Positions 14,498 to 30,598 of a stretch of 33,788 bases of DNA are shown piece after piece; the stretch's first letter is position 1; each line of letters starts with the position of its first letter. The notes under the pieces were generated by a model. That model worked only from the letters and a program-made list of their open reading frames with translations. It made no database searches and was not told the origin of the DNA. This DNA comes from a virus. Location: positions 1 through 33,788 of the IMG/VR virus record IMGVR_UViG_2910170622_000001. One strand, given 5' to 3'. Position numbers and translations under genes: made by a program.

Positions 14498-16100
14498 GTT
14501 CAAATCCAGGCAGAAAATTGCTAATGAGCAGATTAGCCTAGCGACGTTTGTTAAAGAAAGCTGGCATGTTTTAGAGCCGGAAACGACTCTAGCTTGGAAC
14601 TGGCATATTGATGCCATGTGTGAGCATATCCAGGAATCACTACTGGACTGGTTGCGACACAAACAAGACTCAAACTATAAGCAGCGCATCCAAAACCTTT
14701 TAATTAATGTGCCACCTGGCAGTCTTAAGTCTAGAGTCGTCAGTGTTTGTGCCCCCGCATGGTTTTGGACTATCTGCCCTTCATGGCGTGCTATCTTCCT
14801 TTCTTCTAACCCTCGTGTAGCCTTGCGAGATAGCGCCTATTGCCGGGACTTAATTGAAAGTGAATGGTATCAGAAACGCTTTAAGCCTGACTGGAAGCTG
14901 CGTGTTGATACAAACGCTAAGTCGCTTTATTGGAACACCAAAGGTGGGCAAAGGGCATCTTTTGGTTTCAATTCACGGATTACGGGCGATCGCGGCGACT
15001 GCATTTTGGTAGATGACCCTCATGATGCTAAAGAGATCGAATCAGATTTGCTGCGTCAAGCTGTCCTCGATCGCTGGGATAGTGCCATCCGTAACCGGGT
15101 CAACGACTTGCGATCGTCTGTTCGTATCGGCATCATGCAGCGCTTACATCAACTTGACTGGTCCGGGCACGTTTTACAGGAAGGTGACTGGGCGCTTCTT
15201 TGTATCCCTCAAGAATTTGAAGCACCACAAGCACCAACACCGCTCGGCTGGGTAGACCCTCGAACCGAACCGGGGTCATTGATGTTTGAAGAACGCTTCC
15301 CTGAGTATGTTTTAGAGAAAGAGAAACTTGTTTTAGGTTCGTATGGTTACGCAGGACAGCATCAACAGAAACCTGCGCCATCTGAAGGAGGGATGTTTAA
15401 GCTGGCGAATTGGCGTGTGTATGTGCCAAGCGCTGCGCCTAGGTTCACTCGCATGATTCTGAGCTGTGATGCTGCTTTTAAGGGCACAAAAGATTCTGAC
15501 TATGTGGTTGTGCAGGCGATCGCGCAGGTTGCCGATGTGCATACGGTGTTAGATCAGGATGGGAAGCCGATGCTGTTCTCTGATTACTATCTGCCCTACC
15601 AAGCACGATCGCGTGTGGGCATAAGTGGCACCGAGACAATGATCAGAGAAACGTCAAATCGTTACCCAGAAGCGTATACAAAACTGATTGAAGATAAGGC
15701 AAACGGACCCGCAGTGATTGAGCGATTGAGTAGTGAGTTAACAGGCATCACACCATTTAAGCCAGGGATGAACAGCAAGCGATCGCGTGCGTGGTCAATT
15801 CAGCCAATTCATGAAAGGGGTGGTATTTTACTGCCTGCTTCTGACGCTGTTGCGGCAGCGCTTGAGTCAATGGGTAAAACCTCGATTACAGTAGGTGAAT
15901 GGTGGGAATTACATCCACCGCTGCATAAGACAAATGCTGAGTACGCACCAGTACAAGAATGGTGCAAAGCGTTAATGGATGAATTCGCTCAGTTCCCTAA
16001 CGCTGCCAATGACGATCAAGTGGATGCGCTCGATCAAGGCATTATCTGGCTCGAAGCTAACAAGCCACAAAAAACAGGTATGGACCTGCTTTGGGCTTAA
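14466..16100 (+). CDS. terL: Terminase large subunit (start probably MQKLARKK)
   Basis: Walker A LLINVPPGSLKS, Walker B ILVDDPHD, IMQRLH, nuclease motifs SCDAAFK..DSDY, IEDKANG, FPNAANDDQVDA. Confidence 0.95.
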   Translation: MQKLARKKQAEFKSRQKIANEQISLATFVKESWHVLEPETTLAWNWHIDAMCEHIQESLLDWLRHKQDSNYKQRIQNLLINVPPGSLKSRVVSVCAPAWFWTICPSWRAIFLSSNPRVALRDSAYCRDLIESEWYQKRFKPDWKLRVDTNAKSLYWNTKGGQRASFGFNSRITGDRGDCILVDDPHDAKEIESDLLRQAVLDRWDSAIRNRVNDLRSSVRIGIMQRLHQLDWSGHVLQEGDWALLCIPQEFEAPQAPTPLGWVDPRTEPGSLMFEERFPEYVLEKEKLVLGSYGYAGQHQQKPAPSEGGMFKLANWRVYVPSAAPRFTRMILSCDAAFKGTKDSDYVVVQAIAQVADVHTVLDQDGKPMLFSDYYLPYQARSRVGISGTETMIRETSNRYPEAYTKLIEDKANGPAVIERLSSELTGITPFKPGMNSKRSRAWSIQPIHERGGILLPASDAVAAALESMGKTSITVGEWWELHPPLHKTNAEYAPVQEWCKALMDEFAQFPNAANDDQVDALDQGIIWLEANKPQKTGMDLLWA

Positions 16101-16126
16101 TAAAGAAGGGGTGCTGAAACACCCCT
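16099..16126 (-). terminator. Hairpin GGGGTG-TTTCAG-CACCCC followed by TTCTTTATT on the minus strand
   Basis: Perfect 7-bp stem 16107-16126; U-rich tail only on the minus strand. Confidence 0.55.
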
Positions 16127-16181
16127 AGAGTAACTCAATGACATATGCGTTTGTGCTTCCATCTTAGCCACAGGCTAGACA

Positions 16182-19100
16182 ATGGCAACACAAAACGGCA
16201 ATGGCAACGGAAATGGATCGGTCGTAGCGCACTGGGATGATATGGCATCGCTCGGTGCTGCCCTCTCTGGTGGGATCTATAACCCACAGACAGGTATGGG
16301 TATGGTCGGCACTGACCCTAGCCGATCGGCATCGGTCTTCTACGGTGGCAGGCTAGAGCGTGAACAGCAAGAAAGCTTGTTCCGCAACTATGGCTTGCTG
16401 CGTAAAGTCGTGTGCAATATCCCCAGAGCTGCCACTTACCGATGGGGTACGCCCACATTGCCAACGGGTAGCAGTGCCAAGCTTAATGCACTGATTGATG
16501 CACTTAACCAGATCCCAATCCATAGCGCTCGTCACGTCTACAAAGGAGCTAAGAAAGGCTTTCAAGAAGCGCTCAAGACTGCGTTTCTGACGGGTAACTC
16601 TGCCCTCGTTATGGATGCGGATGATGGGTTGCCATTGGATCAACCGCTGAACCTGAAGCGACTTAACAGCGTTAGAAAGCTGTGGCTGTTTAGCCGGTGG
16701 CAACTGGTGCCAGATGACCGATCGCTGACGGTGCTGCGGCAATCTGAGCACTTTGAGATTGTGGACCACAGGGCGATGGATGCACCTGAAGCGAGTTGGC
16801 GTATCCACCGATCGCGTGTGCTGTGGTTCCGTGGTGCTGAACTAATCGACGGGTATACGGGCAGCTATAACCAGGGCTGTGATGATTCGATTCTGCAAGC
16901 GATGTTGGAGTCGTTTTACCTCTATACGAACGGGGTGAAAGGGGCAGGCAGAATGCTGGAGGATTTTGATTTCTATGTACACAAAATCACTGGTCTGCTA
17001 GGCAAACTCGAAAGCAATCCGCAGAAAGCACAGCAGGTCATATCAGCACGACTGGAGATCAACCGTCAGCGGCGATCGAACTTCCGCGACATGGTGATTG
17101 ACAAGGAGAACGAAGAAATCGCCCCTGTCAGTCGCCAAGTCGGTGGTTATAGCGATATGCTCGACCACTGCAAGAACTACCTCTTAGCGTCCACAGACTA
17201 CCCGCCTTCTGTGCTGTTTGGTGAGTTTAGTGCTGGGTTGAACGCGACAGGCATGGAAACATCCGAGCGGCAAACGTGGAACGATACGACTGCACAGGCA
17301 CAGCAGGATAAGTGCGAAGACAATGTTTTAACACTGGCTAACGTGTTGTGTGCGGCAAAGAGTGGACCCACACAAGGCAACGAACTGAAAGGGCTTGCAT
17401 GGCATTGGCACGTCCTCTATGCACCATCCCCTGAAGAAAACGCAGGGCTACAAAGCCAGTTCGCCACGATGCTATCGACCTTGGCACAAGTTGAGCAAAG
17501 TGTGATCGGTCAGGTTGGCATCCGCACGCTGTGGGGACAGAACGAGTTTAACCAGAACCTTGTACTGCCTAAGAACTACGTCAAGTTTCTGGATGACGCG
17601 ATCGCCGCTGCCGTTATTCCACCGCCACCTGAAGAGGAGATGTTAGGCGAGGCAGAGTTAGAGGGCGAAGAATTTGAGGGTGAGGAGCAACTAGCGCTAG
17701 AGGGCAATGATCAAGATCAGGCGATCGCTGACGAACTACTAGACGACCGCACCTTGCTCGACTCCAACGACGTTTTCTTCCTCTACCACCTAGACGCTAG
17801 TACACGCAGCGAACTCCTAGCGAAGGTCAAAGCTAAGAACGAGAGTTTAGCCAAGGGTAAGAAGTTCAACGCCTTCGGGAAAACAACGGCTGAGATTAGG
17901 GCGTTTGTAGGCGAAGGTGGTGATTCACCTGCTAGTAAGTCTAAGGGCACTGCCAAGCCTGCTAGCGGCAAAGCAGGCAAGTATCAGACATCTAAGACCA
18001 GTGGTGCCATTGCCAATGCGATCGCCCGTAAAACGGGTGCTAAGGCAGAGGATATTGAGCAGGACTTGCGCGGCAAGATTCAGAAGGCGATCGACAAAAA
18101 GCGGCGTGACCTGAAAAAGGCAGGCAAGGAAGTCACAGACAAGGATCTGCGTCAGGCTGCACGCGATGTTGTGAAGATTGAGGCGAAGGGTGCGATCGCT
18201 AAAGCTAAAGGTGAACCGATTGCACCAGAGAAAGCCATCGTTAAGAAGCCGAAAGCGACTAAAGCTAAAGCGGTTGAAACTCCTGAAGCGGCAGAGCCTA
18301 AGAAGACGAAGACTGCCAAGAAGAAAGTGGTCGAAGTCGAGCCTAAGCCTATGGAAGAGAAGCCCGTCAAAGCTACTAAACTTAAGGAAAAAGCTAAGGA
18401 TAAACTAAATGTCGGAACAGAAACCAAACCCCAAAAACAAGAAAAATCAGGAAGTAAGACCGGAGAGGTTCGTGGAGCAGCCGGAGGACGTGAACCTGTT
18501 CCTGAAACCGACGAAAAAGAAAGAAAAAGAGCGTTAGAGACGCACGATGTTATTAAAGGCGACTTGTCACGAGATCAAAAAATAGATCGTATTGCCGAAA
18601 TTACAGGACTGGACAAAACTAAAGCCGAGTTTGCTTTAGACGGTATTTCTACCTTCACAAGTGATGCAGGTGAGATAAGACAGTTCGAAATTGGTCAACC
18701 TCTTAAAAGCGACGATCAAGAATACAAAGATGGAGTCAAGGAGAGTGCTGACGGGACAAATCTTTATGTTCGCTCCATGCCTAAATTCAAAGGCGAAATA
18801 CACAGAGGACTTAAATTCAACACAGACGAGGAGAGAGACAAGTTTATTTCATCTGTATCTAACGGGTTTGAGTTGCAAGCTTTAAGTAGTTTTTCATCTG
18901 ATCCCGCGATCGCGCTTCGGTTTAGCGTGGGTATGAAGAAAAAGCCAGGTGTAGTCATAAGCGTCAAATCAAATACAAAAGGAGCTTCCGTAAAAGGAGT
19001 TTCTTCAGTCCCAGCCGAGGATGAAATTGTTGTTCCTAAAGGAGCAAAGTACAAAGTAGTTAAGCAATACGTGAAAGATGGCACTGTCCACCTCGACGTA

Positions 19101-20456
19101 GAGGAAGACGACGACGTTAAGCCACAAGTCGCAACGCCTCCTGTTAACTCTAAAGCGGTGCCAGCTAATAAGCCCAAGCAATCGCCGCGCGCCGACTCTT
19201 ACGAGCAAATCAACTTTAAGCCACCCGTCGAGGCACGACAGGCGTGCAAGAAAGGGCTAGAACTGCACAAAGCAGGCAAGTCAGGCAGTGGTATTGAACC
19301 TGCCACGATTAAAGAGGCAATGGCGATCGCGCAAGGTAAAGCTGTTACCCCTGAAAAGGTCGAAAAGGCGTACAGATGGTTTGCCCGCAACAGTCGCTTT
19401 GCAAGTGCCCCTGAAGGCTCTGGCGCTCACACCGACTGGCTAATTTGGGGCGGCGAACCTTTCAAAACATTCGTAGGCAAAGTAAAGCGGCAGATGGAGG
19501 CAGCACAGGGAGAGCAATCGGACTCTTTTGCTGATGAAAGGCTAAAACTTGATGCGACATGCGGCAAAGGATGGGTAGGGTCAAAACCGCCGGGTTGCAC
19601 TAGAGCAAAGAAGGGGCAACCAATACCGACAGCAGCTAAACCAGAAACTACACCAGTTGCTAAAGAAACCGCTCAACCATCAAAAGCTGCACCCGCAGAG
19701 CAAAAAAACCGTACTGCTGGATCTCACTCTATTTTTAGTCGCAGACTGGTTCAAGCTGAAGGTGATGAGCCAGAAAAAGCAGATATTGAGGCGATGGCTT
19801 CCCAGTTAGAGCAAAAACTGGGGCTAACAAAAAAAGAAGCGAAAGAAACTATTTCTAGCGTCACCAGTTTTACAGGAGATAACTACACAGCGATTCGTAA
19901 AGCTGAACGTGAAGGCAAGCCAACAAAAGAAGGTAAGGCGATCAATCGTTATATCGAAAAAGCGCCAAAATATGACGGCGAAATTTATAGGGGTTTATCG
20001 TTTAAGACCACTAAAGAGCTTGATGACTTCCTGAATACTGCTAAAGAAGGTTCGTCAATGAAACCTGACGCTGTATCAAGTTTCAGTAGCGATCGATCTA
20101 TTGCCGAACGATTTTCTAAAGATTCTGGCAACCAAAACTCGGTTGTTCTTAAAGTCAAACAAAACCGTAGCGGGGCTTCCATACAAGACTTGACACTATA
20201 CCCAGAAGAAGGCGAGGTGCTTGTGCCTAAAAACACGACCTACAGAGTAGCTTCAGTGAAAAGAAAGGGCAACACTGTAGAGATTGAATTGGAGGATACC
20301 GCACCTCCACTTGAAAAAAGCAAAGTGGAAGAGAAGAAGCCTGCCAAAGAAACTAAAGTGCAATCGTTCAATTCGCAAGCAGCGATCGCCAAATTCAAGG
20401 AAGGCAAGCCGCTAAGTCAAGAAGAAGCAGCATTTATCAAACAATTATTAGGCTAA
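16182..20456 (+). CDS. DUF1073-type portal protein fused to a Lys-rich linker, two R-S-E ADP-ribosyltransferase domains and a helical phage-head domain
   Basis: N-terminal ~480 aa with LLRKVVCNIP, RIHRSRVLWFRG, DSILQ, PPSVLFGEFSAGLNATG; ART1 HRG/SSFSSD/AEDEIVVP; ART2 YRG/SSFSSD/EEGEVLVP; FKPP..RQACKKGLE...WLIWGG domain. Confidence 0.88.
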   Translation: MATQNGNGNGNGSVVAHWDDMASLGAALSGGIYNPQTGMGMVGTDPSRSASVFYGGRLEREQQESLFRNYGLLRKVVCNIPRAATYRWGTPTLPTGSSAKLNALIDALNQIPIHSARHVYKGAKKGFQEALKTAFLTGNSALVMDADDGLPLDQPLNLKRLNSVRKLWLFSRWQLVPDDRSLTVLRQSEHFEIVDHRAMDAPEASWRIHRSRVLWFRGAELIDGYTGSYNQGCDDSILQAMLESFYLYTNGVKGAGRMLEDFDFYVHKITGLLGKLESNPQKAQQVISARLEINRQRRSNFRDMVIDKENEEIAPVSRQVGGYSDMLDHCKNYLLASTDYPPSVLFGEFSAGLNATGMETSERQTWNDTTAQAQQDKCEDNVLTLANVLCAAKSGPTQGNELKGLAWHWHVLYAPSPEENAGLQSQFATMLSTLAQVEQSVIGQVGIRTLWGQNEFNQNLVLPKNYVKFLDDAIAAAVIPPPPEEEMLGEAELEGEEFEGEEQLALEGNDQDQAIADELLDDRTLLDSNDVFFLYHLDASTRSELLAKVKAKNESLAKGKKFNAFGKTTAEIRAFVGEGGDSPASKSKGTAKPASGKAGKYQTSKTSGAIANAIARKTGAKAEDIEQDLRGKIQKAIDKKRRDLKKAGKEVTDKDLRQAARDVVKIEAKGAIAKAKGEPIAPEKAIVKKPKATKAKAVETPEAAEPKKTKTAKKKVVEVEPKPMEEKPVKATKLKEKAKDKLNVGTETKPQKQEKSGSKTGEVRGAAGGREPVPETDEKERKRALETHDVIKGDLSRDQKIDRIAEITGLDKTKAEFALDGISTFTSDAGEIRQFEIGQPLKSDDQEYKDGVKESADGTNLYVRSMPKFKGEIHRGLKFNTDEERDKFISSVSNGFELQALSSFSSDPAIALRFSVGMKKKPGVVISVKSNTKGASVKGVSSVPAEDEIVVPKGAKYKVVKQYVKDGTVHLDVEEDDDVKPQVATPPVNSKAVPANKPKQSPRADSYEQINFKPPVEARQACKKGLELHKAGKSGSGIEPATIKEAMAIAQGKAVTPEKVEKAYRWFARNSRFASAPEGSGAHTDWLIWGGEPFKTFVGKVKRQMEAAQGEQSDSFADERLKLDATCGKGWVGSKPPGCTRAKKGQPIPTAAKPETTPVAKETAQPSKAAPAEQKNRTAGSHSIFSRRLVQAEGDEPEKADIEAMASQLEQKLGLTKKEAKETISSVTSFTGDNYTAIRKAEREGKPTKEGKAINRYIEKAPKYDGEIYRGLSFKTTKELDDFLNTAKEGSSMKPDAVSSFSSDRSIAERFSKDSGNQNSVVLKVKQNRSGASIQDLTLYPEEGEVLVPKNTTYRVASVKRKGNTVEIELEDTAPPLEKSKVEEKKPAKETKVQSFNSQAAIAKFKEGKPLSQEEAAFIKQLLG

Positions 20457-23400
20457 TTATGATTAATCATAAAAAGTTTGGAGACACTGACAGTAGTTTT
20501 TGGAGCATAACACCATCTGAACCGAAAGCCGATGCATTCCCCAAGTACGATCGCCGCGTGTTAATTCACGGTTGCACGATCGGCATCACGCACCCAGTTG
20601 GTAGTCATCGCTTCCCCAACGGCAAACCACTGATTGCAGCGTATGGGCACTTACTCGGCACCTCAGACCGATCGCGCCACTCTTCCAGCGCTGACATCTA
20701 TCTCGGCAACGAGCCAGAGTCAACGCAGTTATGGAAAGTGACTCAGACGAAGCCAGATGGACTCTTTGATGAGTACAAGTATTTTGCTCATGTCAAAGAT
20801 GCAGCACAGGCGAGGGCATTACATCGCTACCACGTTGGGGGCGATCGCTCTGGGCAAGTAGAACCTGCTGATTGGTCAGAACTCAAAACAAACCGCTGAG
20901 AGAAATCCTTATGCCGACATTGACTGAGATGGAAAGACTAGCCGATCGCTACTCGATGCCGATCGCTGAAGTTGTGGCAGTGATGGCTGCGAGAGAGGAT
21001 GCTGAATGCGGCAGAGGGTGGCAAGGGAACAAGCCAGGTTGCACTAGGGCTAAAAGCAAAGCGTCTTCCTCAAATACAACAGCAGTTAAAAAAGAATCTG
21101 CCCCACAACAAGTAGAGAGAAAGGCTAAGACTAAAGCAGTTGAAGCAAAACCAAAAGATAAATCAATAAAGGAAGCCGAAAATGGATCAAAAGTACCTGG
21201 ACGAGTTACACGAACTGGAAGCAGCAGCGGGGTCAGCACTGGCGGCAACACAGAAGCCGAAACCCTCCAATCAAGCGGAATCAAAACCGATGCCGATAAA
21301 AAAGAAGTAGAAAAAAATCTAAGGTCATGGATTTCAAAGAATGCAGACCTTAGAGGCAAAAAGGATGCGCCTAAAACACTAGAAGATAACGCTAGTATTG
21401 CGTTTGAGATACTTGATAAAGTCGAATCTGGCGAGAGTTCCTTTACAGGGATTAAAGATAAAAAAGGGAATCTGCAAGCTGCCGCGATCGTTAAGGAAGG
21501 CAAAGACCACCTAGAAATTGAGTATTTAGCAACGGCACCTTGGAATATCGCAGGGAAGGACAAGAAGGCTGTCAGAGGTGCTGGCACTGCCGCCATGGCG
21601 TCTGTCATTGCTGAAAGTGTGAATAAAGGGCACGGTGGCAAAATTAGGCTTGATGCACTGCCAGGTGCAATTCCTTTCTACGAAAAAATAGGCTTCAGTG
21701 TCACTGGCAAAACGAAAGGCGGCAACGACGGCGTGATGTCTATGGAGCTAACACCACAAGCGGCTAATGCTTTTCTTGAAAAGATTGGGAAGAAAGCCAA
21801 AATGGATTCATTGCACCCATCAACCGCTTCACTAATCAGCGCGATCGCAAAGTATCAGCAGCAAGGCTACGACATAGCACCAGCGATCGACTCTATCCGC
21901 AGCGATGGCAAGTGGCAACCTTGCGGCAAAGGGTACGCACCCCCAGGCACGTGCAAGAACGGCAAGCCGGAAGCAAAGGGTAAAACTGCTACAAGTCGCC
22001 ATATCCTTAACCCCAACGCTGACCTGAACTCAAGCGCGGGGCAGAAAGAGGCAGTGGGCAGAACGAGCCGTATCAATCAGTTGGTCGATAAGCTGGCAAA
22101 CGGTCGGTTTAAGGTCACTCCAGACGATCCAAACAAGGCGGGTAAGATGGGCGCTCTCACCGCCATGCGTGACGCTAAGAACCCTAACATCGGGTTGATT
22201 ACTAGCCACAACGCTAAAGACGGCATCACAGGAGCAATGTCTTACAAAGAGGGTCGGAACACTATCACAGTGCAGAACTTTGGCGCTGATGGTTCTGCTA
22301 AAGGCTCTGGCTCTGAAATGTTCAATCAGTTGTTGCTTCATGCTGCCAAGCAGGGCAAAGGGTTAGAAGCTTCATCAGTGGAAGGGGCAAAGGGTTTCTA
22401 TAGCAAGATGGGCATGACTGACGAAGGCTATGGGCAATTCTCTATGTCGAAGCGTGATGTTGCTGCTGCCGTTGCCAAGTTGAATGCTCGCACTGATTCA
22501 AGGTTAGATGCCACTACAAAGAACTCACCACCTAAGCCATGCGGTAAAGGTTGGCAAGGCACAAAGCCAGGTTGCACTAGAGCGGGGAAAGGGCAACCCA
22601 CCCCTACAAAGTCAGCAACACCGAAAGCAGCAACACCAGTTGCCAAAAAGAGTAAAGCGACAACCAAACCACAGCCATCAGACGACCTTGAAACGCTGAA
22701 GAAAAACTATGAAGAACGGGATGCTCGATCGCTTGGTGGCGTTACAAGCAAATTCAGCGATGTGGGCAATATGATGCAGCTTTACGCTGATGAAATTAAG
22801 TCAGCAGGTAAAGGCGATAAAACATTGACTGCTGCTTTCGATCGCGGTGAGCGTAACTGGAATCCTGCGCTAGTGGTTGAGACAGACAAAGATCAGTACG
22901 AAGCGATCGGTGAGAGTAGCAACCGGACGATCGCGGCTGCTAAAGGGTCGAAAGAAGGTCGAGCATTTAGCATCATCGTGCCAAATAATCCTGATCAGAT
23001 TGAACTTGCCAAAATGCTGCAAGTGCCTGACAAAAAGAACCCAGCGGTAATGGGCAAAGAGCGGGCAGACGACAAAGAAGACAAACAATCGTTTGACTAT
23101 GGCAATTACATCAGTGCCTACTCAGACACGATCGCGTCCCCCTCTGGCAAACGTCAGCACGAAGGCACCGACGAGCAAATCGAAGCCGCTGCCAAGAAGT
23201 TGTTAGCGACGAATGGGCGTAACTGGGTGCCGATCGTCGTGAAGCCGACTGGTAAGAATGAAGCAGGCGACGAGCAGTTTGAAGTGGTGGGCAACCACTT
23301 CGCCTATGATGTGGCACGCAAAGCAGGATTAGAGCGCATTTGGACAGTTGTAGCTGATGACACTGTGAACGCTGCCAAACCAAAGACAAAACAGACTAAG

Positions 23401-24729
23401 GCTGACTCTATGCACCCATCTACAGCAGCACTGATTAGCGCGATCGCCAAATATCAGCGCTTAGGCTACAACGTTGATAGCGCGATCAACTCGCTCAGGC
23501 AAGATGCCCGCGGCGAGGGAGTTGCTTGTGGTAAATCTTTTATTAGTCCTAGAGCCAAATGCAGCAAGGAAAAGTCTAAAACAACTTCCAAGGAAGCGTT
23601 ACAGAAGACTACAGCGAAGGCAAAAGCACGACAGCAGCTAAGGGCAGAAGTCGAGGGGCGTGGCAAGCCTAAGTCCAAAGGCATGACCAAAGCAGAAGTC
23701 TCAGAGATGATGGCTAACCCTGAAGCGGAAGCCGCACGACTGGCTGTGATGGGCTACCCCAAAGTCGAGCCATCCGCCCGATCGCGCCGGATTGCAGGCT
23801 TAGTCGATGACCTGAAGACCACTGCCAAAGCAGAGGATAAGAACGCCGATCGCATTCAGGCAGTTGCCGCTGAAGCGCTGAGTCGTCTAGGCATTGAAAC
23901 TACGCCATCGAAGACACAGACACAGCCAACTAAGCTACCCGCAGGAGGATCAGGTAAGCAACGGTTACAAGCAGCGATGGAAGGGCTGAAGGCCAATACT
24001 CAGGCTGACTTGGTGAACGCTGCCCAAGGGCTAGCTGTGGCACAAGTGGCAGTCAACGAGTTGACCAAGCAGGCAGAGAAAGATAAGCAGAAGGAGAAGA
24101 GAGCGATCTCACCTACACCAGAAGAAGGCTCAACTGCTGCTATGTACGAACGCAGAGCGCGTGAGTTTGAGCAACGCAAGGAGCAACAGCAGCGTGATCA
24201 ACAGAAACTAGCAACCGCTGACTTAAGCAAACTCACACCAGAGCAGCGTCAAGTAGCAGCACAAATTCAGCGCAAGGTAGAACAAGGTTTCACGATCGAC
24301 CCTGCTATCACCAAACAACGGCGTGAAGAGATTCAAACGAAGCTAACCAGACAAGGCAGGCTAGGGCGTAAAGAGCTTTTTGAGAACCTAGCAGCGTGGC
24401 AGGCAGAAGACGAAGTGCTGAGAAAGTTGGGCTTCCCCACCGCTAGCGATCGCCCTAAGCCTACTCTCAAACCCAAAGGCATCACTTCTGCCCCCCAGTC
24501 GTCACGCGGTAGAAGTGGCACCGCAGGCGATAACCCTAACTACAGGGGCAAATATGGCTACGTTAGCGTCGATTCACTGTCACCTTCTACCGGGTCACTG
24601 ATTAGCGCGATCGCTAAGTACAAAGCAGATGGGTTTGACGTTACACCAGCGATCGAGGCTTTTAGGAAGGATGCAGCGTGTGGCAAAGGTTGGCAAGGTA
24701 CAAAGCCACCAGGCTGTACTAGGGCTAAA
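19560..24729 (+). repeat. Dispersed coding repeat A: CG(K/R)GWxGxKP(P)GCTRA at 19560, 21007, 22540, 24679; variants at 21922 and 23527
   Basis: Visible in protein and DNA (tg[ct]gg[ct]a[ag]agg.tgg...cc[ag]gg[tc]tg[ct]actag). Confidence 0.9.
20459..20899 (+). CDS. Phage inorganic pyrophosphatase-like (InPase) domain protein, degenerate
   Basis: ITHPVGSHR, AAYGHL.GT, DIYLG, Q.KPDG.FDEYK match the phage InPase pattern; the usual DGD motif is missing. Confidence 0.65.
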   Translation: MINHKKFGDTDSSFWSITPSEPKADAFPKYDRRVLIHGCTIGITHPVGSHRFPNGKPLIAAYGHLLGTSDRSRHSSSADIYLGNEPESTQLWKVTQTKPDGLFDEYKYFAHVKDAAQARALHRYHVGGDRSGQVEPADWSELKTNR

Positions 24730-25773
24730 AGTACAAAGCCTAGCCCAGAGAAGACAGTTGCAAAGAAAGCGCCACCAAAAGCTGTCAAAACAACAGAACT
24801 TAAAAAAGAAAAGGCACCCAAAAAACAAGCCGCTAAAGCAAAACCAGAAGTAGCTGATGACTCTGTGAAGAATGGAGTTGTCAAAGCGAAGGCAGGCGAT
24901 TTAAACCCAGTTAAGCTGACTGCTGATGAGATGGTTAACATATCAGATCGCTTAGACAGTATCGACACTAGCGCTAACGGCGACAGGATTGGGGCAGCTT
25001 GGGCAAAAATACAAGGTTTTGACGGCAAACCAGAGCTTTCCTCTAAGGCAGATATGGATGCTGCTATAGCTAGGGGCGAGACAGCAACGTATAGAGGGGT
25101 GGCTCTTGAGAGTCATGCCAAACAGCTTCAAACTGGTGAGCTATTTGTTGGAGGTGGTTTGTTTGGCGACTCCATCTATACAGCAGTCGATAATCCACCG
25201 GGGTTAGGTTACAAGACTGCAAGCGGTTATGCAGGCGAAGGCTCAACAGTAGTCAGGATGTCGATCAAGCCTGGACTGAAAATAGTCAAGCACGATGCCT
25301 TGATTAAAGAAATGGAGGAAGCCGCGGAAGATTTCAAGGAGAAAAAAGCACCGTTAATTATTCAGAAAGAAACCGAGCGCCTAAACAAGACTGTCAGCTT
25401 GAAAAAGGTTGACAGCAAGACAGATGCAATGTCGATCGATGGCGTTGATGCAGGACAGGTTAAGAAGGTAGGAAAGTTTTATCGCACGATCCTACCTGGG
25501 TATCGTCGTGAAGAAGACACCAAATTCAAAACACCCGAAGAAGCTCAAGAGTCTTTGAAAAAGCGAAAAATGTCAGAACTGGCAGAATTGAAAGTAGCAA
25601 AAGTCTACGACAATTTCTTTCTCAATGAAGGTACATACGCTTCTGCCCGTGGCTATGACGGCTATAGTATTGCCAATACTAAAGGGGGCAAAACACCTCT
25701 AGCTGATTACACAATGATTACCAACAGGACTGCATTAAGAATGCAGTCTGAACTACTGAGCAAGCAGTCATGA
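20911..25773 (+). CDS. Polyvalent effector polyprotein: GNAT, GNAT, ParB-like x2, coiled-coil, C-terminal ART-like domain, separated by repeated modules
   Basis: GNAT1 IEYLATAPWN..RGAGT..DALPGAIPFYEKIGF; GNAT2 KGSGSEMF..AKGFYSKMGM; ParB-like RNWVPIVVK..FEVVGNHFAYDVARKAG; ART-like YRG..G.GLFGDSIY..ASGYA..GYDG..ITNRTAL. Confidence 0.82.
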   Translation: MPTLTEMERLADRYSMPIAEVVAVMAAREDAECGRGWQGNKPGCTRAKSKASSSNTTAVKKESAPQQVERKAKTKAVEAKPKDKSIKEAENGSKVPGRVTRTGSSSGVSTGGNTEAETLQSSGIKTDADKKEVEKNLRSWISKNADLRGKKDAPKTLEDNASIAFEILDKVESGESSFTGIKDKKGNLQAAAIVKEGKDHLEIEYLATAPWNIAGKDKKAVRGAGTAAMASVIAESVNKGHGGKIRLDALPGAIPFYEKIGFSVTGKTKGGNDGVMSMELTPQAANAFLEKIGKKAKMDSLHPSTASLISAIAKYQQQGYDIAPAIDSIRSDGKWQPCGKGYAPPGTCKNGKPEAKGKTATSRHILNPNADLNSSAGQKEAVGRTSRINQLVDKLANGRFKVTPDDPNKAGKMGALTAMRDAKNPNIGLITSHNAKDGITGAMSYKEGRNTITVQNFGADGSAKGSGSEMFNQLLLHAAKQGKGLEASSVEGAKGFYSKMGMTDEGYGQFSMSKRDVAAAVAKLNARTDSRLDATTKNSPPKPCGKGWQGTKPGCTRAGKGQPTPTKSATPKAATPVAKKSKATTKPQPSDDLETLKKNYEERDARSLGGVTSKFSDVGNMMQLYADEIKSAGKGDKTLTAAFDRGERNWNPALVVETDKDQYEAIGESSNRTIAAAKGSKEGRAFSIIVPNNPDQIELAKMLQVPDKKNPAVMGKERADDKEDKQSFDYGNYISAYSDTIASPSGKRQHEGTDEQIEAAAKKLLATNGRNWVPIVVKPTGKNEAGDEQFEVVGNHFAYDVARKAGLERIWTVVADDTVNAAKPKTKQTKADSMHPSTAALISAIAKYQRLGYNVDSAINSLRQDARGEGVACGKSFISPRAKCSKEKSKTTSKEALQKTTAKAKARQQLRAEVEGRGKPKSKGMTKAEVSEMMANPEAEAARLAVMGYPKVEPSARSRRIAGLVDDLKTTAKAEDKNADRIQAVAAEALSRLGIETTPSKTQTQPTKLPAGGSGKQRLQAAMEGLKANTQADLVNAAQGLAVAQVAVNELTKQAEKDKQKEKRAISPTPEEGSTAAMYERRAREFEQRKEQQQRDQQKLATADLSKLTPEQRQVAAQIQRKVEQGFTIDPAITKQRREEIQTKLTRQGRLGRKELFENLAAWQAEDEVLRKLGFPTASDRPKPTLKPKGITSAPQSSRGRSGTAGDNPNYRGKYGYVSVDSLSPSTGSLISAIAKYKADGFDVTPAIEAFRKDAACGKGWQGTKPPGCTRAKSTKPSPEKTVAKKAPPKAVKTTELKKEKAPKKQAAKAKPEVADDSVKNGVVKAKAGDLNPVKLTADEMVNISDRLDSIDTSANGDRIGAAWAKIQGFDGKPELSSKADMDAAIARGETATYRGVALESHAKQLQTGELFVGGGLFGDSIYTAVDNPPGLGYKTASGYAGEGSTVVRMSIKPGLKIVKHDALIKEMEEAAEDFKEKKAPLIIQKETERLNKTVSLKKVDSKTDAMSIDGVDAGQVKKVGKFYRTILPGYRREEDTKFKTPEEAQESLKKRKMSELAELKVAKVYDNFFLNEGTYASARGYDGYSIANTKGGKTPLADYTMITNRTALRMQSELLSKQS

Positions 25774-26070
25774 GCAAAGAGATAGCTTTTACCACATTGA
25801 GCCAAAGGGCAGGCAAGGTAATAAATGCCCCTGTCTTTAAGAAGTTGAAGTTTGACAGTTTAGCGAAGTACTTCAAGCTTGTTGGCGTAATTAATAACAC
25901 TGACTTCTTTGAGAATCTGCCTGCATCTACTCAAGCCTTAATCAAGCAAGCAGAGCAAGAGCTGGACGAAAAGTCTAGCCAACCACCTAGCACCATACGA
26001 CCATCCACTGATTCATTGGTTAATGCGATCGCTAAGTTCCAGAAGCAAGGCATTAAAATCGACTCTGCCA
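21805..26070 (+). repeat. Dispersed coding repeat B: DSx(H/S)PSTxxLISAIAKYxxxG(Y/F)xxxxAI at 21805, 23404, 24571, with a divergent copy at 26001
   Basis: Four aligned copies, three in the polyprotein and one in the downstream gene. Confidence 0.88.
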
Positions 26071-26258
26071 CAGCCTTGGACATTCTAAAACAGCACAAAG
26101 ATGGGATGAGCAAATACGATCGACTGGTCAAGTCTCTAGCTGCTAAAGGTGCTGATGATCCAAAAGCGCTAGCAGCAGCGATCGGGCGCAAGAAGCTCGG
26201 TAAGAAACGGTTTCAGGCAAGAGCAAAAGCAGGCGCGAGGAAAGCGGCTAAAGCATGA
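25770..26258 (+). CDS. Putative immunity-like protein fused to repeat B and a basic tail
   Basis: ATGA coupling to the ART-like C-terminus; LSQRAG...FENLP..TQALIKQAE; PSTDSLVNAIAKFQKQG; KGADDPKALAAAIGRKK. Confidence 0.7.
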   Translation: MSKEIAFTTLSQRAGKVINAPVFKKLKFDSLAKYFKLVGVINNTDFFENLPASTQALIKQAEQELDEKSSQPPSTIRPSTDSLVNAIAKFQKQGIKIDSATALDILKQHKDGMSKYDRLVKSLAAKGADDPKALAAAIGRKKLGKKRFQARAKAGARKAAKA

Positions 26259-26712
26259 CGGGGACAAGCTTAGGCGATCGCCCTTTCTTCCCCTTCACGG
26301 TACGCACTGGTAATGGTGTGCTGACAACTGGCGCGATCGCCTCTACAGCCCCAGCCTTGACCACTACTGGCTTCACGCTGACAGTTACGGCAGGGGTAGC
26401 CTCTTTCTCAAGGCACGAGTCAACATAACCGTCCGACCATGCTCTGAACTTGCCTCCTGCCATAAATGCTGTGTATGCGGCTAGGGCGATCGCTGCGAGT
26501 ATTGCCCTGCCTGTGAAGCGGTACAAAGCTTTAGCGGTAGGTGAAGTATAAAAGCGGTGAACTTCAAGCGCTACAGGCTTAATCTCGGTGGTGTAGGCAA
26601 GGTTGATGGAGTGCGCGATCGCTTCTGCCACAAGCTTAATTGAAACGTAACAGCTAGCGGCGAAGACTACGGAAAAACGACCAGCACCAGACTGGAAGAG
26701 TGAGACTTGCAT
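26248..26712 (-). CDS. Accessory (moron-like) hypothetical protein with one hydrophobic segment; start MQVSLFQ
   Basis: AAGGA RBS, own sigma70-like promoter, segment AILAAIALAAYTAFMAG. Confidence 0.6.
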   Translation of the reverse strand: MQVSLFQSGAGRFSVVFAASCYVSIKLVAEAIAHSINLAYTTEIKPVALEVHRFYTSPTAKALYRFTGRAILAAIALAAYTAFMAGGKFRAWSDGYVDSCLEKEATPAVTVSVKPVVVKAGAVEAIAPVVSTPLPVRTVKGKKGRSPKLVPVML

Positions 26713-26816
26713 TGTAGGAGTCCTTAAGATTGTTGGGTGCCCTGCAGTGTCGGGCTTCGTTCGGTCAGCGGTCTTTTGTTGCGTCGGTGGATGCGCTCGC
26801 TGCATTCCATGTGTCC

Positions 26817-26846
26817 AAACTATCAGCGCGACTACAATAGTGTCAA
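26817..26846 (-). promoter_or_regulatory. Sigma70-like promoter TTGACA-18-TAGTTT
   Basis: Consensus -35 at 26846-26841 and -10 at 26822-26817, upstream of the 26712 ORF. Confidence 0.6.
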
Positions 26847-26868
26847 TGTGATTCACAGGAACTTCACC

Positions 26869-27096
26869 ATGTCCGACGCAAGCTTAAACAATCAGAAAGT
26901 GGAATATCCTTCTTACGTTTCAGGCGAGTCTGAATATGAAATAGATCTGGATAAATCTATAAGAGAAATGGTAGAGCGTCCGTGGGCTCCTCATCTCATA
27001 GAATCTCTCGAACTAGAAGACGGTGACGACATGTGGCTAGTGTGGCTAAACCTTGCCGACAAAGCAGAAGCGATCGCCAAAGAGCGAGGACGTTAA
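26869..27096 (+). CDS. Small acidic hypothetical protein (MSDASLNN)
   Basis: AGGA RBS; next gene starts 2 nt after its stop. Confidence 0.6.
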   Translation: MSDASLNNQKVEYPSYVSGESEYEIDLDKSIREMVERPWAPHLIESLELEDGDDMWLVWLNLADKAEAIAKERGR

Positions 27097-27098
27097 CA

Positions 27099-27461
27099 AT
27101 GGAAGTCACAGAAGACAAGCGTAACGCCTATCAGAAGCAGTGGGAAGCGATGAGCGATCGTGAGCAGCACGCTGTCCGGCTAGTAGAGATGGCGCATCAG
27201 ATGCTTGAAACTTTTGAAGATGGCAAGACGATCGCTTGGATACAAGAGTTTTTCTCAAAAGTCCCTGAACTTACTTTTTCAGTATCAGAGATTGAGTTTG
27301 CTATGATGCACGCTTTGAAAGCTAGGCAAGCAGCACTTAAGGCAATCTGGAAAAAGCTATATAGCCGTGAAAGTCTTGCAACGGCAATGATTGAGCAGCA
27401 AGCACACCAAGAAGCGATCGCCCAGCGCATCAAGGATGAGAAAGAGGAAGCTACATCGTGA
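27099..27461 (+). CDS. Helical hypothetical protein (MEVTEDKR)
   Basis: GAGGA RBS; GTGA coupling to next gene. Confidence 0.65.
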   Translation: MEVTEDKRNAYQKQWEAMSDREQHAVRLVEMAHQMLETFEDGKTIAWIQEFFSKVPELTFSVSEIEFAMMHALKARQAALKAIWKKLYSRESLATAMIEQQAHQEAIAQRIKDEKEEATS

Positions 27462-27877
27462 CAAATGGTTTCTTCCAAAAGATAACGGGTCCAGAGTTTG
27501 ACGGCATCATGCAAAGCGTTGGGATGCGACCGGAACAGGTACGCTATGGCGAAACTAAAGTTATCAAACCTGTGCCACTGTTGACCATTTCAGGTTTAGT
27601 CAACATCACCGCAATTCAAGCTCCTGGTCTAACAGATGGCGGCGAATATGTGCAGGCTTACGAGGCATCCATTCCACTGTCTACACTGACGCGATCGTTC
27701 GGGCGTGACGGCTGGCAAAGCGCGATCGCTCCTGGTCAGATTTGGTACGTGAATCTAGGCGACGGTACTGGGTGGAGACGATGCCGCACGTATGCTGAAG
27801 CTACGACAGGCGTAGGGATGCGCTACGGGGTGAAGTTGGCAGAAATGGGGCTAGGTGACTGGCAGACAGCGATTTAA
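27458..27877 (+). CDS. Putative head-closure/neck protein
   Basis: Size, beta-rich sequence and position ahead of the tail-completion-like gene; the function is inference. Confidence 0.45.
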   Translation: MTNGFFQKITGPEFDGIMQSVGMRPEQVRYGETKVIKPVPLLTISGLVNITAIQAPGLTDGGEYVQAYEASIPLSTLTRSFGRDGWQSAIAPGQIWYVNLGDGTGWRRCRTYAEATTGVGMRYGVKLAEMGLGDWQTAI

Positions 27878-27888
27878 GGAGAGAGCTT

Positions 27889-28041
27889 ATGCTTCGTTTT
27901 AAGTGGTTCAGAAAATGGCTTGGCGGGACTTGGTATCTCTGTGAGTACCCTGGATACGACTGTGGCGGCATCTACATCTGGAGGAAAGCGCCACACCACA
28001 ACGAGATTGTTGTTCAAAGGGAGCATTACGACAGTGTTTGA
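27889..28041 (+). CDS. 50-aa aromatic-rich protein MLRFKWFRKWLGGTWYLCEY..., not in the ORF track
   Basis: Strong AAGGAGAG RBS; its end overlaps the GTG of the next gene. Confidence 0.7.
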   Translation: MLRFKWFRKWLGGTWYLCEYPGYDCGGIYIWRKAPHHNEIVVQREHYDSV

Positions 28042-28495
28042 AATCTCCCTAACTCTTAACCCACAGCAGTTAGCCGATCTAGAAAGGACGATCGCGCAAC
28101 TCAGCAACAACTCATGGATCGCCACAGCGCTACGGGGCATGATTCCAGAGTTAGAGCAAATCAACCGTACTCAGGCAGGTTTGGTCTCGCAACTGCCCTA
28201 CTCAGAAGGGTATGAGGGCAGGCTCAAGCCATCACGCAAAAACACAGCCATACAGGGCGATGGTAAATTTGCACAGGACACACTAGGGCTTGTCGCTGAT
28301 ACCGTCTCTAATTGGGTGATAGAGGGTGATAACGATACTTTAGCCAACTTCTCAGACAGGGCTTATGCTGGTAGGCAACAGGCGATCGCTGAGAGTAAGG
28401 GCGTAGCGGGTGGTTTCTATGCCGATGACGAAACTTATTTTAGGCTGATGGAACTAGCGATCGGTGATGGCGCTGAAACTATTTGGAGAGAGTAA
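28034..28495 (+). CDS. Putative tail-completion / virion morphogenesis (HK97 gp10/gpS-like) protein; GTG start
   Basis: QDTLGL...SDRAYAGRQQ resembles the DTG.L...YA..HQ motif. Confidence 0.5.
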   Translation: MFEISLTLNPQQLADLERTIAQLSNNSWIATALRGMIPELEQINRTQAGLVSQLPYSEGYEGRLKPSRKNTAIQGDGKFAQDTLGLVADTVSNWVIEGDNDTLANFSDRAYAGRQQAIAESKGVAGGFYADDETYFRLMELAIGDGAETIWRE

Positions 28496-28740
28496 TGGAC
28501 ACTGACAGCGTGGATCAGTATCAATTAGAGATCAGTTTTAAGAACAATTATGACAGTGATTTCACCATCGACATTGCGCCACCAACCAAAGATTCAGTTA
28601 AAGCGCTTTGCAACAGTTTTAATGAGTCGGTGCAAACTGGTGGATTCGTAGAAGTCCATGACATTCACGGACAAAGTTTTTTGGTTAAAGGTGCTGAAGT
28701 AGTGCGGGTTTGGTTCGCGAAGGTTTCACAGGACAATTAA
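28495..28740 (+). CDS. Small hypothetical protein (MDTDSVDQ)
   Basis: GGAGAG RBS and TAATG coupling. Confidence 0.6.
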   Translation: MDTDSVDQYQLEISFKNNYDSDFTIDIAPPTKDSVKALCNSFNESVQTGGFVEVHDIHGQSFLVKGAEVVRVWFAKVSQDN

Positions 28741-29226
28741 ATGCCAGTAGCAATACTCGAACATCCCATCACCGCAGTTCTGACCAAAACCACAGAACCA
28801 CTAGGACTGCTACCCTACCTCGATCGGCGCTTTGAGGCAGATTGGCAACGCTTCCAGGTGAAAAACTACGGCTTCCAAGGCGCTGGCAATTTCGATCCCT
28901 CAGTCAACGGCTCAGGCTATCGAGTGCGAGAAGATGATTCTGTAGGCTCAACTGCACACCGTGCTACTTACACATCTTCTGTTTTATTGGGCAAGATATT
29001 CCCGTTAATCGGTGTAAACGATCAACAGGTTTCTGCTAACGTCAGCTACTCAGTGGATAAGGCAATTAGAGCGTGGTTGTGCCAAGCATCAGGCGTTGTG
29101 ACAGGTGCAGAGTTACAGATTCAGTGCAGCAGAGCGATCGAGTCTGATAAAAATATTAGTGCTAGCAACGTTAGAGCTAAATGGCACGTATTGATCTGGA
29201 GCTTTCAGCTGGCGGTTTACGGTTGA
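28741..29226 (+). CDS. Putative tail terminator-like protein
   Basis: Size and position between neck genes and the tail tube candidate; the function is inference. Confidence 0.4.
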   Translation: MPVAILEHPITAVLTKTTEPLGLLPYLDRRFEADWQRFQVKNYGFQGAGNFDPSVNGSGYRVREDDSVGSTAHRATYTSSVLLGKIFPLIGVNDQQVSANVSYSVDKAIRAWLCQASGVVTGAELQIQCSRAIESDKNISASNVRAKWHVLIWSFQLAVYG

Positions 29227-29231
29227 TCACC

Positions 29232-29417
29232 TTAGAATCTCACCTCGCCGCCAAACTTTTCTAGGAACAATAAGAAGCGATCGGCGCTCATCTTGCGCTT
29301 GCCATTGACGTATAGGTTGATGGTCGGTTGCTTCACGCCTAGAAAGATTGCAGCTTCGCCCTGCGTCATGTTTCTAGCTGCCAATAGCCTTCCAAGTAAC
29401 TCGCCTGAGAAATCCAT
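29232..29417 (-). CDS. Small XRE/Cro-like HTH protein
   Basis: MTQGEAAIFLGVKQPTINLYVNGKRK. Confidence 0.85.
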   Translation of the reverse strand: MDFSGELLGRLLAARNMTQGEAAIFLGVKQPTINLYVNGKRKMSADRFLLFLEKFGGEVRF

Positions 29418-29509
29418 AACGGAAGCGTTATATCACCCCTCTAGTTTACTCAGTCAAGGGCTTAATGGAAGTAACTCTCCTGCTTTAGCCCTCCTAGACT
29501 GGCTTCCAC

Positions 29510-29800
29510 ATGAAAATACCCGCTACAGAAGTCAAGACAACTACAAAAGATGTTGAGCTTGATGTCAAAGCCGTTTACAAAGAGCCGCATTTAACCGTCA
29601 CCGTGGATGGTTTGGAAGTTTTAACACTCACAGTCTCCGCTAGCACATCGCGTTCCGCATCGGGTGCTGACGACATTCTCGATCTGCGCCTGAGCATTTC
29701 TGAGGAGGAAAGCCTTCTCAAACAAATCCATTTGCCATCACTCAAAGCTGAACAAAAGCACGAGAAGGAAGCAGTAACTCACCCAACGACAGGAGCTTAA
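29510..29800 (+). CDS. Hypothetical protein
   Basis: ORF directly upstream of the tail tube candidate. Confidence 0.6.
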   Translation: MKIPATEVKTTTKDVELDVKAVYKEPHLTVTVDGLEVLTLTVSASTSRSASGADDILDLRLSISEEESLLKQIHLPSLKAEQKHEKEAVTHPTTGA

Positions 29801-29803
29801 CAA

Positions 29804-30595
29804 ATGCCCGGTGATGTCATTCAAAAAGTGGTGAAAGGCTTAGTCCGTACTGCTGTACGTGACAATAGCAACCCCTTAGCACCAGTAACATTGCTCCTGC
29901 CAACAGCTTCTCAGATTACCTACGACACAGGGATTGAGTTAGCCGACCTAGAAGGCGTTTCTTGCCAAGGCGTGAAGATTACCCGATCGCGCTATCCAAC
30001 CAGTGAAAAGCCAAAGGTCAACTTGACGTTTCCCAACACACCAGAAACGATCGCCCTCAAGTTGAACCGTAAGTTTGTTACAAGAACAGCAGTCAGCAGC
30101 AGTATTTTTCAGTCTGATTTTATCGTCCCACCTGATGGGATTGTGGCAGCAAAGCCGATCGGTACGCTAGGTAACGGTGTTGCGGCGGATGCTGTCTCTA
30201 AGGCTTGGCAACTGAACGCTGCTGGTATTACTGATCAAACGGCACTCACACAAGGCACGTTTGCAGGCTTTGACGCTGCCACCACTCCGCTAGGTTTTGC
30301 GATCGGTGCTGACAACGCCCAAAAATGGGGTTCTGGACTTTGGAACAGTACCGTCTCGTTTGAAATCCCCACCGTGATTGCTTCGTTGTCTTCACTTGGC
30401 ACCATCCCATATTCTGCGTTGAATCTGCGGTTAGCCTTCGTGACGATCGACGGTAAATCGTTGCTGACCATTAGTTTTGGGCAGGTATCAGTTGACTCTA
30501 CAGGCTCCATCAACTTCGGTGAGGGTCAGACAGAGGTAGGGTTCTTTGCTGGCAGTCCTGAGATTGATCTGATTCCACTCTCTAACTTCTGTTAA
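29804..30595 (+). CDS. Putative major tail tube protein
   Basis: 263 aa, Thr/Gly/Ala-rich and beta-rich, AGGAG RBS, followed by two chaperone-sized genes. Confidence 0.6.
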   Translation: MPGDVIQKVVKGLVRTAVRDNSNPLAPVTLLLPTASQITYDTGIELADLEGVSCQGVKITRSRYPTSEKPKVNLTFPNTPETIALKLNRKFVTRTAVSSSIFQSDFIVPPDGIVAAKPIGTLGNGVAADAVSKAWQLNAAGITDQTALTQGTFAGFDAATTPLGFAIGADNAQKWGSGLWNSTVSFEIPTVIASLSSLGTIPYSALNLRLAFVTIDGKSLLTISFGQVSVDSTGSINFGEGQTEVGFFAGSPEIDLIPLSNFC

Positions 30596-30598
30596 TAA

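Follow-up and report, generated by a model that had tools for sequence, protein, structure and literature searches.

A head-module gene of a predicted cyanobacterial provirus joins five leader-and-cargo units that may be packaged and ejected

The locus analysed here raises the question of why a single phage gene should encode several distinct effector-type domains in one chain, and where the product of such a gene would act. The gene lies in the first 33.8 kb (33,788 nucleotides; the window) of the 109-kb IMG/VR provirus record IMGVR_UViG_2910170622_000001, in which positions 20911–25773 of the + strand form one uninterrupted open reading frame (ORF) of 1,620 amino acids, with an ATG at 20911 and the stop at 25773. 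An alternative TTG start at 20872 overlaps the upstream gene; the ATG is backed by a database copy of the protein (P0002) and a homologue (P0004), both of which have an MPT... N terminus. The ORF comprises five units of leader and cargo, and the cargo consists of two GNAT acetyltransferase-like domains, a tandem of ParB/sulfiredoxin (Srx)-like domains, a helical domain and a C-terminal domain. We favour, with moderate confidence, the reading that the gene encodes a phage-type polyvalent protein of concatenated leader-and-cargo units that is packaged in heads and ejected and that the prohead protease probably cuts.

The repeat architecture of the protein can be read directly. All 10 cysteines fall into five C-x9-11-C pairs (module A): CGRGWQGNKPGC (A1, 21007–21042), CGKGYAPPGTC (A2, 21922–21954), CGKGWQGTKPGC (A3, 22540–22575), CGKSFISPRAKC (A4, 23527–23562) and CGKGWQGTKPPGC (A5, 24679–24717), these and all other features of the ORF being on the + strand. 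The general form of this 2-Cys module is hairpin-like, CG[KR]GWxGTKP(P)GC followed by K or R. The second recurring element, module B, is a helical segment of ~35 amino acids with the consensus DS[LM]xPST..LISAIAKY..G.D..AI, present in three strict copies that each stand ahead of an A module and score 56–66 bits with a B-only hidden Markov model (HMM). A fourth copy occurs in the gene immediately downstream, and the model finds nothing else among the ORFs of the 109-kb record. The unit plan is thus a helical segment (B or a variant of it), an [RKH]-x-D-[AGS] site, the 2-Cys module, usually a K/P/A-rich spacer, and a globular cargo.

Unit 1 opens with an N-terminal helical leader (20911–21006), a B-like variant that ends in REDA and aligns with the leaders of P0003, P0004 and P0009. 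In unit 2, B2 (21799–21918) starts with KMDS and ends with RSDG, and the A2 variant that follows is the same one that precedes GNAT2 in P0003, P0004 and P0008. RTDS and RLDA sites lie ahead of A3. B4 (23398–23517) starts with KADS, ends with RQDA and corresponds to the exact start of the stand-alone genes P0035 and P0051; it leads into A4, a type-2 variant that is also found in P0010, P0035, P0042 and the metagenomic contig L007. B5 (24568–24678) ends with RKDA. The basic spacers follow A1, A3 and A5, have a K/P/A/S/T content of 57–70% and carry a net charge of +6 to +11: spacer 1 (21043–21318) is of low complexity with net +8, and spacers 3 (22576–22713; net +6) and 5 (24718–24885; net +11) are both 70% K/P/A/S/T. 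The resulting order, A–GNAT1–B–A'–GNAT2–A–ParBx2–B–A'–helical–B–A–C-terminal domain, is exactly the beads-on-a-string arrangement of ~1620 amino acids that a first-pass annotation had read from the letters, including its Cys-pair module ahead of each cargo and the usual K/P/A-rich spacer. Because the DNA copies of the repeats are 62–84% identical (protein identity about 55–60%), the repeats are, judged by their sequences, old copies under protein-level constraint. An assembly or recent-duplication artefact was ruled out by the same divergence.

Three of the five cargo domains can be assigned to a family or fold; the enzymatic activities of all of them are predictions from sequence. GNAT1 (21319–21798) matches PF13673 at positions 21574–21717 (E = 1e-6; 29.2 bits against a cut-off of 23.6) with an intact motif A, RGAGT, and it is the sole cargo of the homologues P0032, P0028 and P0011. 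The first-pass annotation had further likened it to toxin-type acetyltransferases. Judged against TacT/AtaT-like tRNA acetyltransferases, this likeness found no support: there is no NCBIfam match and no antitoxin-like neighbouring gene, and the profile matches in the PDB are all generic GNATs and weak (E >= 0.012). GNAT2 (21994–22500) is divergent and on its own falls below the Pfam cut-off. A profile of five GNAT2 sequences nevertheless aligns with the GNAT1 profile in hhalign at 96% probability (E = 2.5e-9), covering motif A and the C-terminal beta-alpha and pairing KGSGS of GNAT2 with RGAGT of GNAT1, and blastp connects GNAT2 to P0032 (E = 1e-4). Both GNATs are matched by phrog_1917, annotated as 'virion structural protein' (E = 2.6e-7 for GNAT2).

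The third cargo consists of two halves (22714–23058 and 23101–23382) that are paralogous by blastp. Region 590–842 of P0001 was modelled with AlphaFold2 (AF2) from a nine-sequence alignment, giving a predicted local distance difference test score (pLDDT) of 83 and a predicted template modelling score of 0.82. The top Foldseek matches of this model in the PDB are all ParB, Noc, KorB, sulfiredoxin, SerK and SbnI, and its matches in BFVD are ParB/Srx proteins. In VIA-align, the first half reaches Z 6.8 to the ParB-N domain of pNOB8 and the second half Z 9.4–9.6 (root-mean-square deviation 2.4–3.0 over 77–85 amino acids; Z 9.5 to ParB/Noc). PDB profile searches with the ParB and GNAT2 alignments returned no significant match. 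The second half has an invariant V-G-N-H-F-A, with no arginine, where ParB has GERRxRA and DdrB-like ParB a conserved arginine, the positions being equated through the structural match. The model thus supports the two ParB-like domains proposed earlier, and on this prediction cargo 3 is a duplicated ParB/sulfiredoxin fold without the canonical arginines. A separate 176-amino-acid ParB-like gene (13486–14016), just upstream of the terminase small subunit gene (TerS), matches phrog_620 and the N-terminal part of phrog_498 and has no sequence kinship with the tandem.

Cargo 4 (23563–24567) is a stretch of 335 amino acids that is rich in A/K/E/Q/R, probably helical, of net charge +22, and ends in a conserved TAGD..YRGKY.xVSVDSL. 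It has no family match in Pfam, PHROG or NCBIfam, and the sole relative found is the distant P0003 (31% identity over 349 amino acids). Cargo 5 (24886–25770) has relatives only in P0053 and L011, at 80–88% identity. It had been read as an ADP-ribosyltransferase (ART)-like domain, and this assignment found no support: no match was found in Pfam, PHROG or NCBIfam even at E 10, in PDB sequences, or by tblastn against 50,697 GenBank phages even at E 1; a comparison in hhalign with a profile built from seven R-S-E ARTs of the phage group gave 0.5% probability; and PF18760 (ART-PolyVal) and PF00644 (PARP) match nothing in the 109-kb record. The likeness to ARTs consists of short strings (YRG, GDSIYTA), and the position at which a glutamate is expected reads D-Y-T. 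The first-pass annotation had proposed structure prediction by segment; the AF2 model of cargo 5, from a two-sequence alignment, has a pLDDT of 36 and is unusable.

The leader that connects these domains is portable. An HMM of the B–A module, searched against 1.84 billion representative proteins at E <= 1e-3, found 46 proteins, and a word-indexed search across 5.8 billion proteins agreed with this set. In the proteins collected, 50 in number, the module occurs 66 times, and 40 of these proteins have its first cysteine within the first 90 amino acids. A typical member has 180–420 amino acids and consists of an N-terminal helix, R-[LMI]-D-A-(T)-P-CG[RK]GW[VE]GTKP(P)GC-[KT]-R, a K/P/A/T-rich spacer and one cargo. 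Pfam identifies the cargo as R-S-E ART (4 proteins), kinase (3), GNAT (3), J-domain (DnaJ; 2), ParB_N (2) and inorganic pyrophosphatase (InPase; 1), and HExxH proteins and hydrophobic Gly/Ala-rich domains can be seen in the sequences of others; in all, no fewer than 8 different families of cargo follow an N-terminal leader. The module also occurs C-terminal to the portal domain (in the window portal, P0033 and the portal of the IMG/VR contig G001) and in the C-terminal part of the DUF2213 protease-scaffold proteins P0029 and P0039. That one leader is common to single enzymes and to the polyprotein suggests a shared tag for head loading and delivery to the next host.

Outside this set the leader is rare. 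Megablast of positions 14000–33788 and tblastn of the whole protein found no match among the 50,697 GenBank phages, nor did tblastn with the leader of P0015 (residues 1–62) even at E 1. A whole-protein search for related loci in IMG/VR returned nothing, and the leader alignment A8 retrieved one further contig there. With the same alignment, a search of 185,579 species-representative genomes gave no credible match, the one hit, in Verrucomicrobia, being rejected because no ORF there contains the module. No Pfam family covers the module, and from these comparisons it appears to be an undescribed family.

Two observations concern the relatives of the leader proteins. The 82-kb metagenomic phage contig L007 carries, at 4255–12845, at least four neighbouring genes with Cys-pair leaders (864 amino acids, 287 amino acids, a 350-amino-acid ART and 514 amino acids), two of which share a near-identical 55-amino-acid N terminus (MTPETF..IVSIERNHGLRLDARSVWLRMDATPCGRGWVGTKP..); this contig therefore holds the same system in a form of separate genes. 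In P0003 (residues 40–220), P0011, P0020 and P0045 and at the C terminus of P0029, the leader is followed by the hydrophobic Gly/Ala-rich cargo (..WKVGKVVGGAIGQVAASHGA..), which is absent from the window polyprotein and may be a membrane-active ejection protein.

The units are also shuffled and separable. The ParB-like tandem precedes GNAT2 in P0003, P0004 and P0005, which contain other cargo in addition; unit 4 forms the stand-alone genes P0035 and P0051, which start exactly at the B module; P0016, P0019 and P0046 consist of the leader and the ParB-like tandem only, and P0032 of the leader and GNAT1 only. In the contig L011, the cargo 5 relative comes after an InPase, a four-Cys linker (KCKPTSVSCGNSCQRAGSKCKNK) and a basic spacer. 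Homologues with one invariant structural architecture would have contradicted the earlier reading of independent beads, and what we find instead is that cargo is reordered and also occurs in stand-alone genes. A tape-measure-like or otherwise invariant structural protein was likewise ruled out by the shuffled architectures. The L011 region (6109–7826) is a close relative (80–88% amino acid identity) that keeps one reading direction through three frameshifts, with nearby genes fragmented as well, and represents either a decaying prophage or a poor assembly.

Whether the chain is cut can be approached through a short motif, [RKH]xD[SAG]. Compared with shuffled sequences, it is enriched in the polyprotein (16 sites, 4.5 expected), in the DUF2213/Pa193_gp24-type prohead protease-scaffold encoded at 11708–12949 on the − strand (phrog_530, PF09979; 8 sites, 1.4 expected) and in an acidic scaffold-like protein at 10944–11711 on the − strand, the most strongly enriched ORF (10 sites, 1.1 expected, z 9), and absent from the capsid and decoration proteins (0 sites, 0.5 and 0.2 expected). 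These three enriched ORFs head the ranking of the 34 in the window. The same three gene types lead in the Stenomitos contig L004 (z 6.8, 6.6 and 5.1), and the protease leads in the more distant L009 (z 4.9). Ten of the 16 polyprotein sites are at unit boundaries, typically K-x-D-S at the start of B and R-x-D-A/G between B and the first cysteine; across the collected modules a site lies no more than 12 residues upstream in 41 of 66, and aspartate is the commonest residue at −4. The [RKH]xD[SAG] pattern resembles that of prohead-protease motifs, which in T4 and SPN3US recur across scaffold, internal proteins and the protease itself (PMC10052503).

An alternative is that the protein is packaged and ejected unprocessed, as one chain of ~175 kDa in which the B–A modules and basic spacers act as joints that are flexible, bind DNA or can be threaded, in the manner of the phage N4 virion RNA polymerase. 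This would fit a polyprotein without a peptidase domain, spacers whose net charge of +6 to +11 is compatible with DNA binding, a conserved aspartate that may be structural, and the full-length transfer of the N4 virion RNA polymerase and of ArdC among polyvalent proteins (PMC5512222). It is harder to reconcile with a motif that is enriched in protease, scaffold and polyprotein alike, as seen in two or three phages, with unit boundaries that coincide with the N termini of stand-alone homologues, and with a dedicated prohead protease gene nearby, and we consider it unlikely. The term polyprotein, which the first-pass annotation had used, holds in the sense of one chain of separate cargo units, whereas the cleavage that it implies is a prediction.

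Several points count against a protein that is packaged, processed and ejected. Each of these steps is a prediction from motif statistics, analogy and the order of the genes. The sequences in which the motif is enriched are those that served to define it, and L004 is a relative, which makes the replication only partly independent. The conserved aspartate four residues before the first cysteine might bind metal or have a structural role instead of being P1; one motif site lies within the GNAT1 fold and three within the C-terminal domain; and B5 begins with VDSL, without the basic residue of the motif. In the literature searched we found no description of the specificity of DUF2213 proteases, and Pa193 gp24, of that family, is treated solely as a scaffold (PMC11456595). 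The polyprotein contains no MuF, zincin peptidase (MPTase) or LPD domain (Pfam, E <= 1) and no HExxH, and two of its five cargo domains are without an assignable function.

The genes that surround the polyprotein ORF form a head module. On the − strand lie the major capsid protein (9439–10410) and a decoration-like protein (10422–10943), followed by the scaffold-like protein and the prohead protease. The + strand carries a tight run of the 176-amino-acid ParB-like gene, TerS, the terminase large subunit gene (TerL), a portal–ART–ART fusion, an InPase gene, the polyprotein ORF and a gene for a protein of 162 amino acids. The portal protein (16182–20456; 1,424 amino acids) is fused to two R-S-E ART domains (PF06381, PF03496, PF01129). 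The polyvalent-protein-type InPase (20459–20899; E = 9e-14 to PF18823, a family that Pfam defined on such proteins) is a separate gene in the window; the gene table of the Stenomitos relative L004 shows it as part of the portal protein. The gene order of the window recurs in the Stenomitos prophage L004 and in G001. Module-bearing genes directly adjoin the portal in three independent contigs, namely the window, L004 and G001; in G001, a portal with two modules is followed by leader–ART and leader–InPase genes. A scan for promoters and terminators gave no signal above shuffles.

This setting bears on the possibility that the protein does not enter virions at all and is a cytoplasmic multi-enzyme, made late or by the prophage, for host takeover or superinfection exclusion, with the Cys modules as metal-binding or redox-sensitive joints. 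Packaging is itself a prediction, and two-Cys loops together with a conserved aspartate could bind metal. The place of the gene between the portal and downstream late genes is, however, kept in three phage contigs, the same module is found on portal and prohead-protease proteins, and the phrog that matches the GNAT domains is annotated as a virion structural protein, all of which makes a purely cytoplasmic enzyme very improbable.

The portal extension runs for ~940 amino acids past PF06381, with the ART motifs HRG/SSFSS/EDE and YRG/SSFSS/EGE. Between the two ARTs is a helical domain of ~100 amino acids (..KAYRWFARN..WLIWGG..), and a single A module, CGKGWVGSKPPGC (19560–19598, + strand), stands ahead of ART2 with KLDA before it and a spacer after it. 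With 12 portal subunits, the portal vertex would carry as many as 24 ART domains. In the window prohead protease, the C-terminal half contains a type-2 A-like C-x11-C loop, CPGGYSIPASKNC (12044–12082), followed by a long basic tail, and a CGC motif in 'DDCGCHADA' (12197–12205). Homologues of the polyprotein end in 'CGCxEC' and a K/R tail, and the protease P0039 has 'GCGCDSGNCGCEKCKKKRKEKR', which makes this a second recurring Cys element.

The 162-amino-acid gene downstream (25770–26258, + strand) overlaps the polyprotein stop by 4 nucleotides. Its product contains the fourth B module (26001–26102) and a basic tail, has no Cys pair and belongs to no known family. One could regard it as an immunity gene, in which case the locus would be a polymorphic toxin of a temperate phage, similar to MuF toxins, with an interbacterial toxin at the C terminus and the upstream units serving as delivery or scaffold. 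The 4-nucleotide overlap suggests translational coupling, in the decayed L011 the C-terminal cargo still adjoins the point where the downstream gene starts, and MuF-type toxins have variable C-terminal domains with a small ORF after 89% of them (PMC5576092). The polyprotein nonetheless has no MuF domain, its C-terminal domain has no detectable toxin family, and every unit varies among relatives, not the C-terminal one alone; with its B module and basic tail, the downstream product also looks more like a head-associated protein than a cytoplasmic inhibitor. We therefore judge a toxin–immunity pair improbable, and the downstream gene could encode another head-internal protein rather than an immunity protein.

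The host can be predicted from two lines of evidence. The HIP1 octamer GCGATCGC occurs 46 times in the window, compared with 0.58 expected, and the closest named relative of the polyprotein gene is in a metagenome-assembled genome of Stenomitos rutilans; the host is therefore taken to be a cyanobacterium. Most of the related contigs (L004, L005, L011 and L013/14) are rich in HIP1 too, which points to cyanobacterial hosts. The same octamer encodes the Ala-Ile-Ala of 'SAIAKY' in every B module.

Under the reading that we favour, of a packaged, cut and ejected chain, the protein would be made late, alongside the head proteins, and its reiterated leader would draw it into the interior of the procapsid, as the capsid-targeting sequence (CTS) does for the T4 internal proteins and Alt. 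The DUF2213-type prohead protease would then cut the [RKH]-x-D-[SAG] sites that flank the B segments and yield five cargo proteins, each still bearing the Cys module and the basic spacer at its N terminus. The composition of the basic spacers would fit a role in binding DNA within the head. The cargo would finally exit with the DNA and act on the newly infected cell.

A more general version can be offered tentatively, as a conjecture that we hold to be possible rather than probable. The element of ~50 amino acids (helix, R-x-D-A, CG[KR]GWxGTKP(P)GC and basic tail) would be the universal head-loading and release tag of one cyanobacterial phage clade, used equally at the N termini of single enzymes, between the domains of the polyprotein and on the portal and protease-scaffold, and cutting at its Asp sites would turn the polyprotein into five separate ejected effectors. 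Within this conjecture the 2-Cys loops might pair, for instance via a shared metal ion, and so knit cargo, portal and scaffold into one core. The Rad50 zinc hook is an example of Cys loops that pair through a shared metal ion.

Of the systems described, the closest are the phage polyvalent proteins, which join 2–15 unrelated effector-type domains per chain, among them ART, kinase, GNAT, ParB-like and InPase domains, and are predicted to be packaged and injected (Iyer et al. 2017; PMC5512222). As in that class, the window has a very long multi-domain protein with GNAT and ParB/Srx domains among the head genes of a phage with portal and terminase, and ART and InPase domains are fused to or placed beside the portal. 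It differs in the absence of MuF, MPTase and LPD domains, which are frequent in the class without being obligatory; in a ParB-like domain that is a tandem with GNHFA in place of the arginine motif; and in the reiterated ~50-amino-acid leader that joins the domains and also heads single-cargo proteins. Polyvalent proteins were reported to be scarce in cyanobacteria, and the words 'linker' and 'cysteine' are absent from that survey (PMC5512222).

The MuF toxins (Jamet et al. 2017; PMC5576092) are likewise encoded next to the portal by temperate phages; their C-terminal domain is enzymatic, variable and frequently an ART, and a small ORF lies downstream. Unlike them, the window protein lacks MuF and has five cargo domains in place of one, and its conserved part is a short reiterated leader and not an N-terminal structural domain.

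T4 offers a functional parallel. Its CTS is the sole conserved part of otherwise diverse internal proteins (PMC3012670), and these proteins and Alt combine a short N-terminal leader on diverse cargo, loading into the prohead core, trimming by gp21 at a short motif in which an acidic residue precedes the cut, and ejection with the DNA. Alt is itself an ART, and the cargo proteins of the window's phage group include ARTs (PMC5512222). The differences are that there is no sequence similarity, that the leader is longer (~50 amino acids) with a 2-Cys module proposed to stay on the cargo, that the units are concatenated in one gene, and that the protease family (DUF2213) and the Asp-containing motif are others. 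In SPN3US, many internal head proteins, the ejection (E) proteins, have N-terminal propeptides that are removed at a short consensus recurring several times within them, and the protease also acts on itself and on the portal (PMC10052503). SPN3US and its phiKZ-like relatives are, however, lytic giant phages whose protease is T4 gp21-like and whose motif is Glu-based, and their cargo is mostly non-enzymatic paralogues that are not concatenated. The likeness to the T4 CTS and internal proteins and to phiKZ-type E proteins would thus be one of function, without a common sequence, protease family or motif.

For module B, a possible model comes from scaffolding. In Pa193, a helix-turn-helix of ~40 amino acids in gp24 binds the capsid interior at the five-fold vertices (PMC11456595). 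This protein and the window protease belong to the same Pfam family, PF09979, and by analogy the coat-binding helix-turn-helix of gp24 and of the P22 scaffolding protein may serve as a model for the two-helix B. A B-like helix pair in the window scaffold or protease was ruled out, since the B-only HMM finds none.

Polyvalent or otherwise ejected phage effectors are known mainly from phages of Proteobacteria and Firmicutes. In the group described here, one portable leader serves ARTs, kinases, GNATs, ParB-like domains, J-domains, pyrophosphatases and peptidase-like domains, whose genes either stand singly next to the portal or are joined into one. The T4 CTS has served as a transferable head-loading signal; should the leader prove to be a tag for loading and cleavage, cyanophage heads would have a defined signal of that kind, equally transferable. 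If the proposed processing is true, it would also provide a cleavage motif for the widespread, uncharacterised DUF2213 prohead proteases. The cargo list, which includes two domains without a recognisable family, is in turn a catalogue of candidate effectors for early host takeover or anti-defence in filamentous cyanobacteria.

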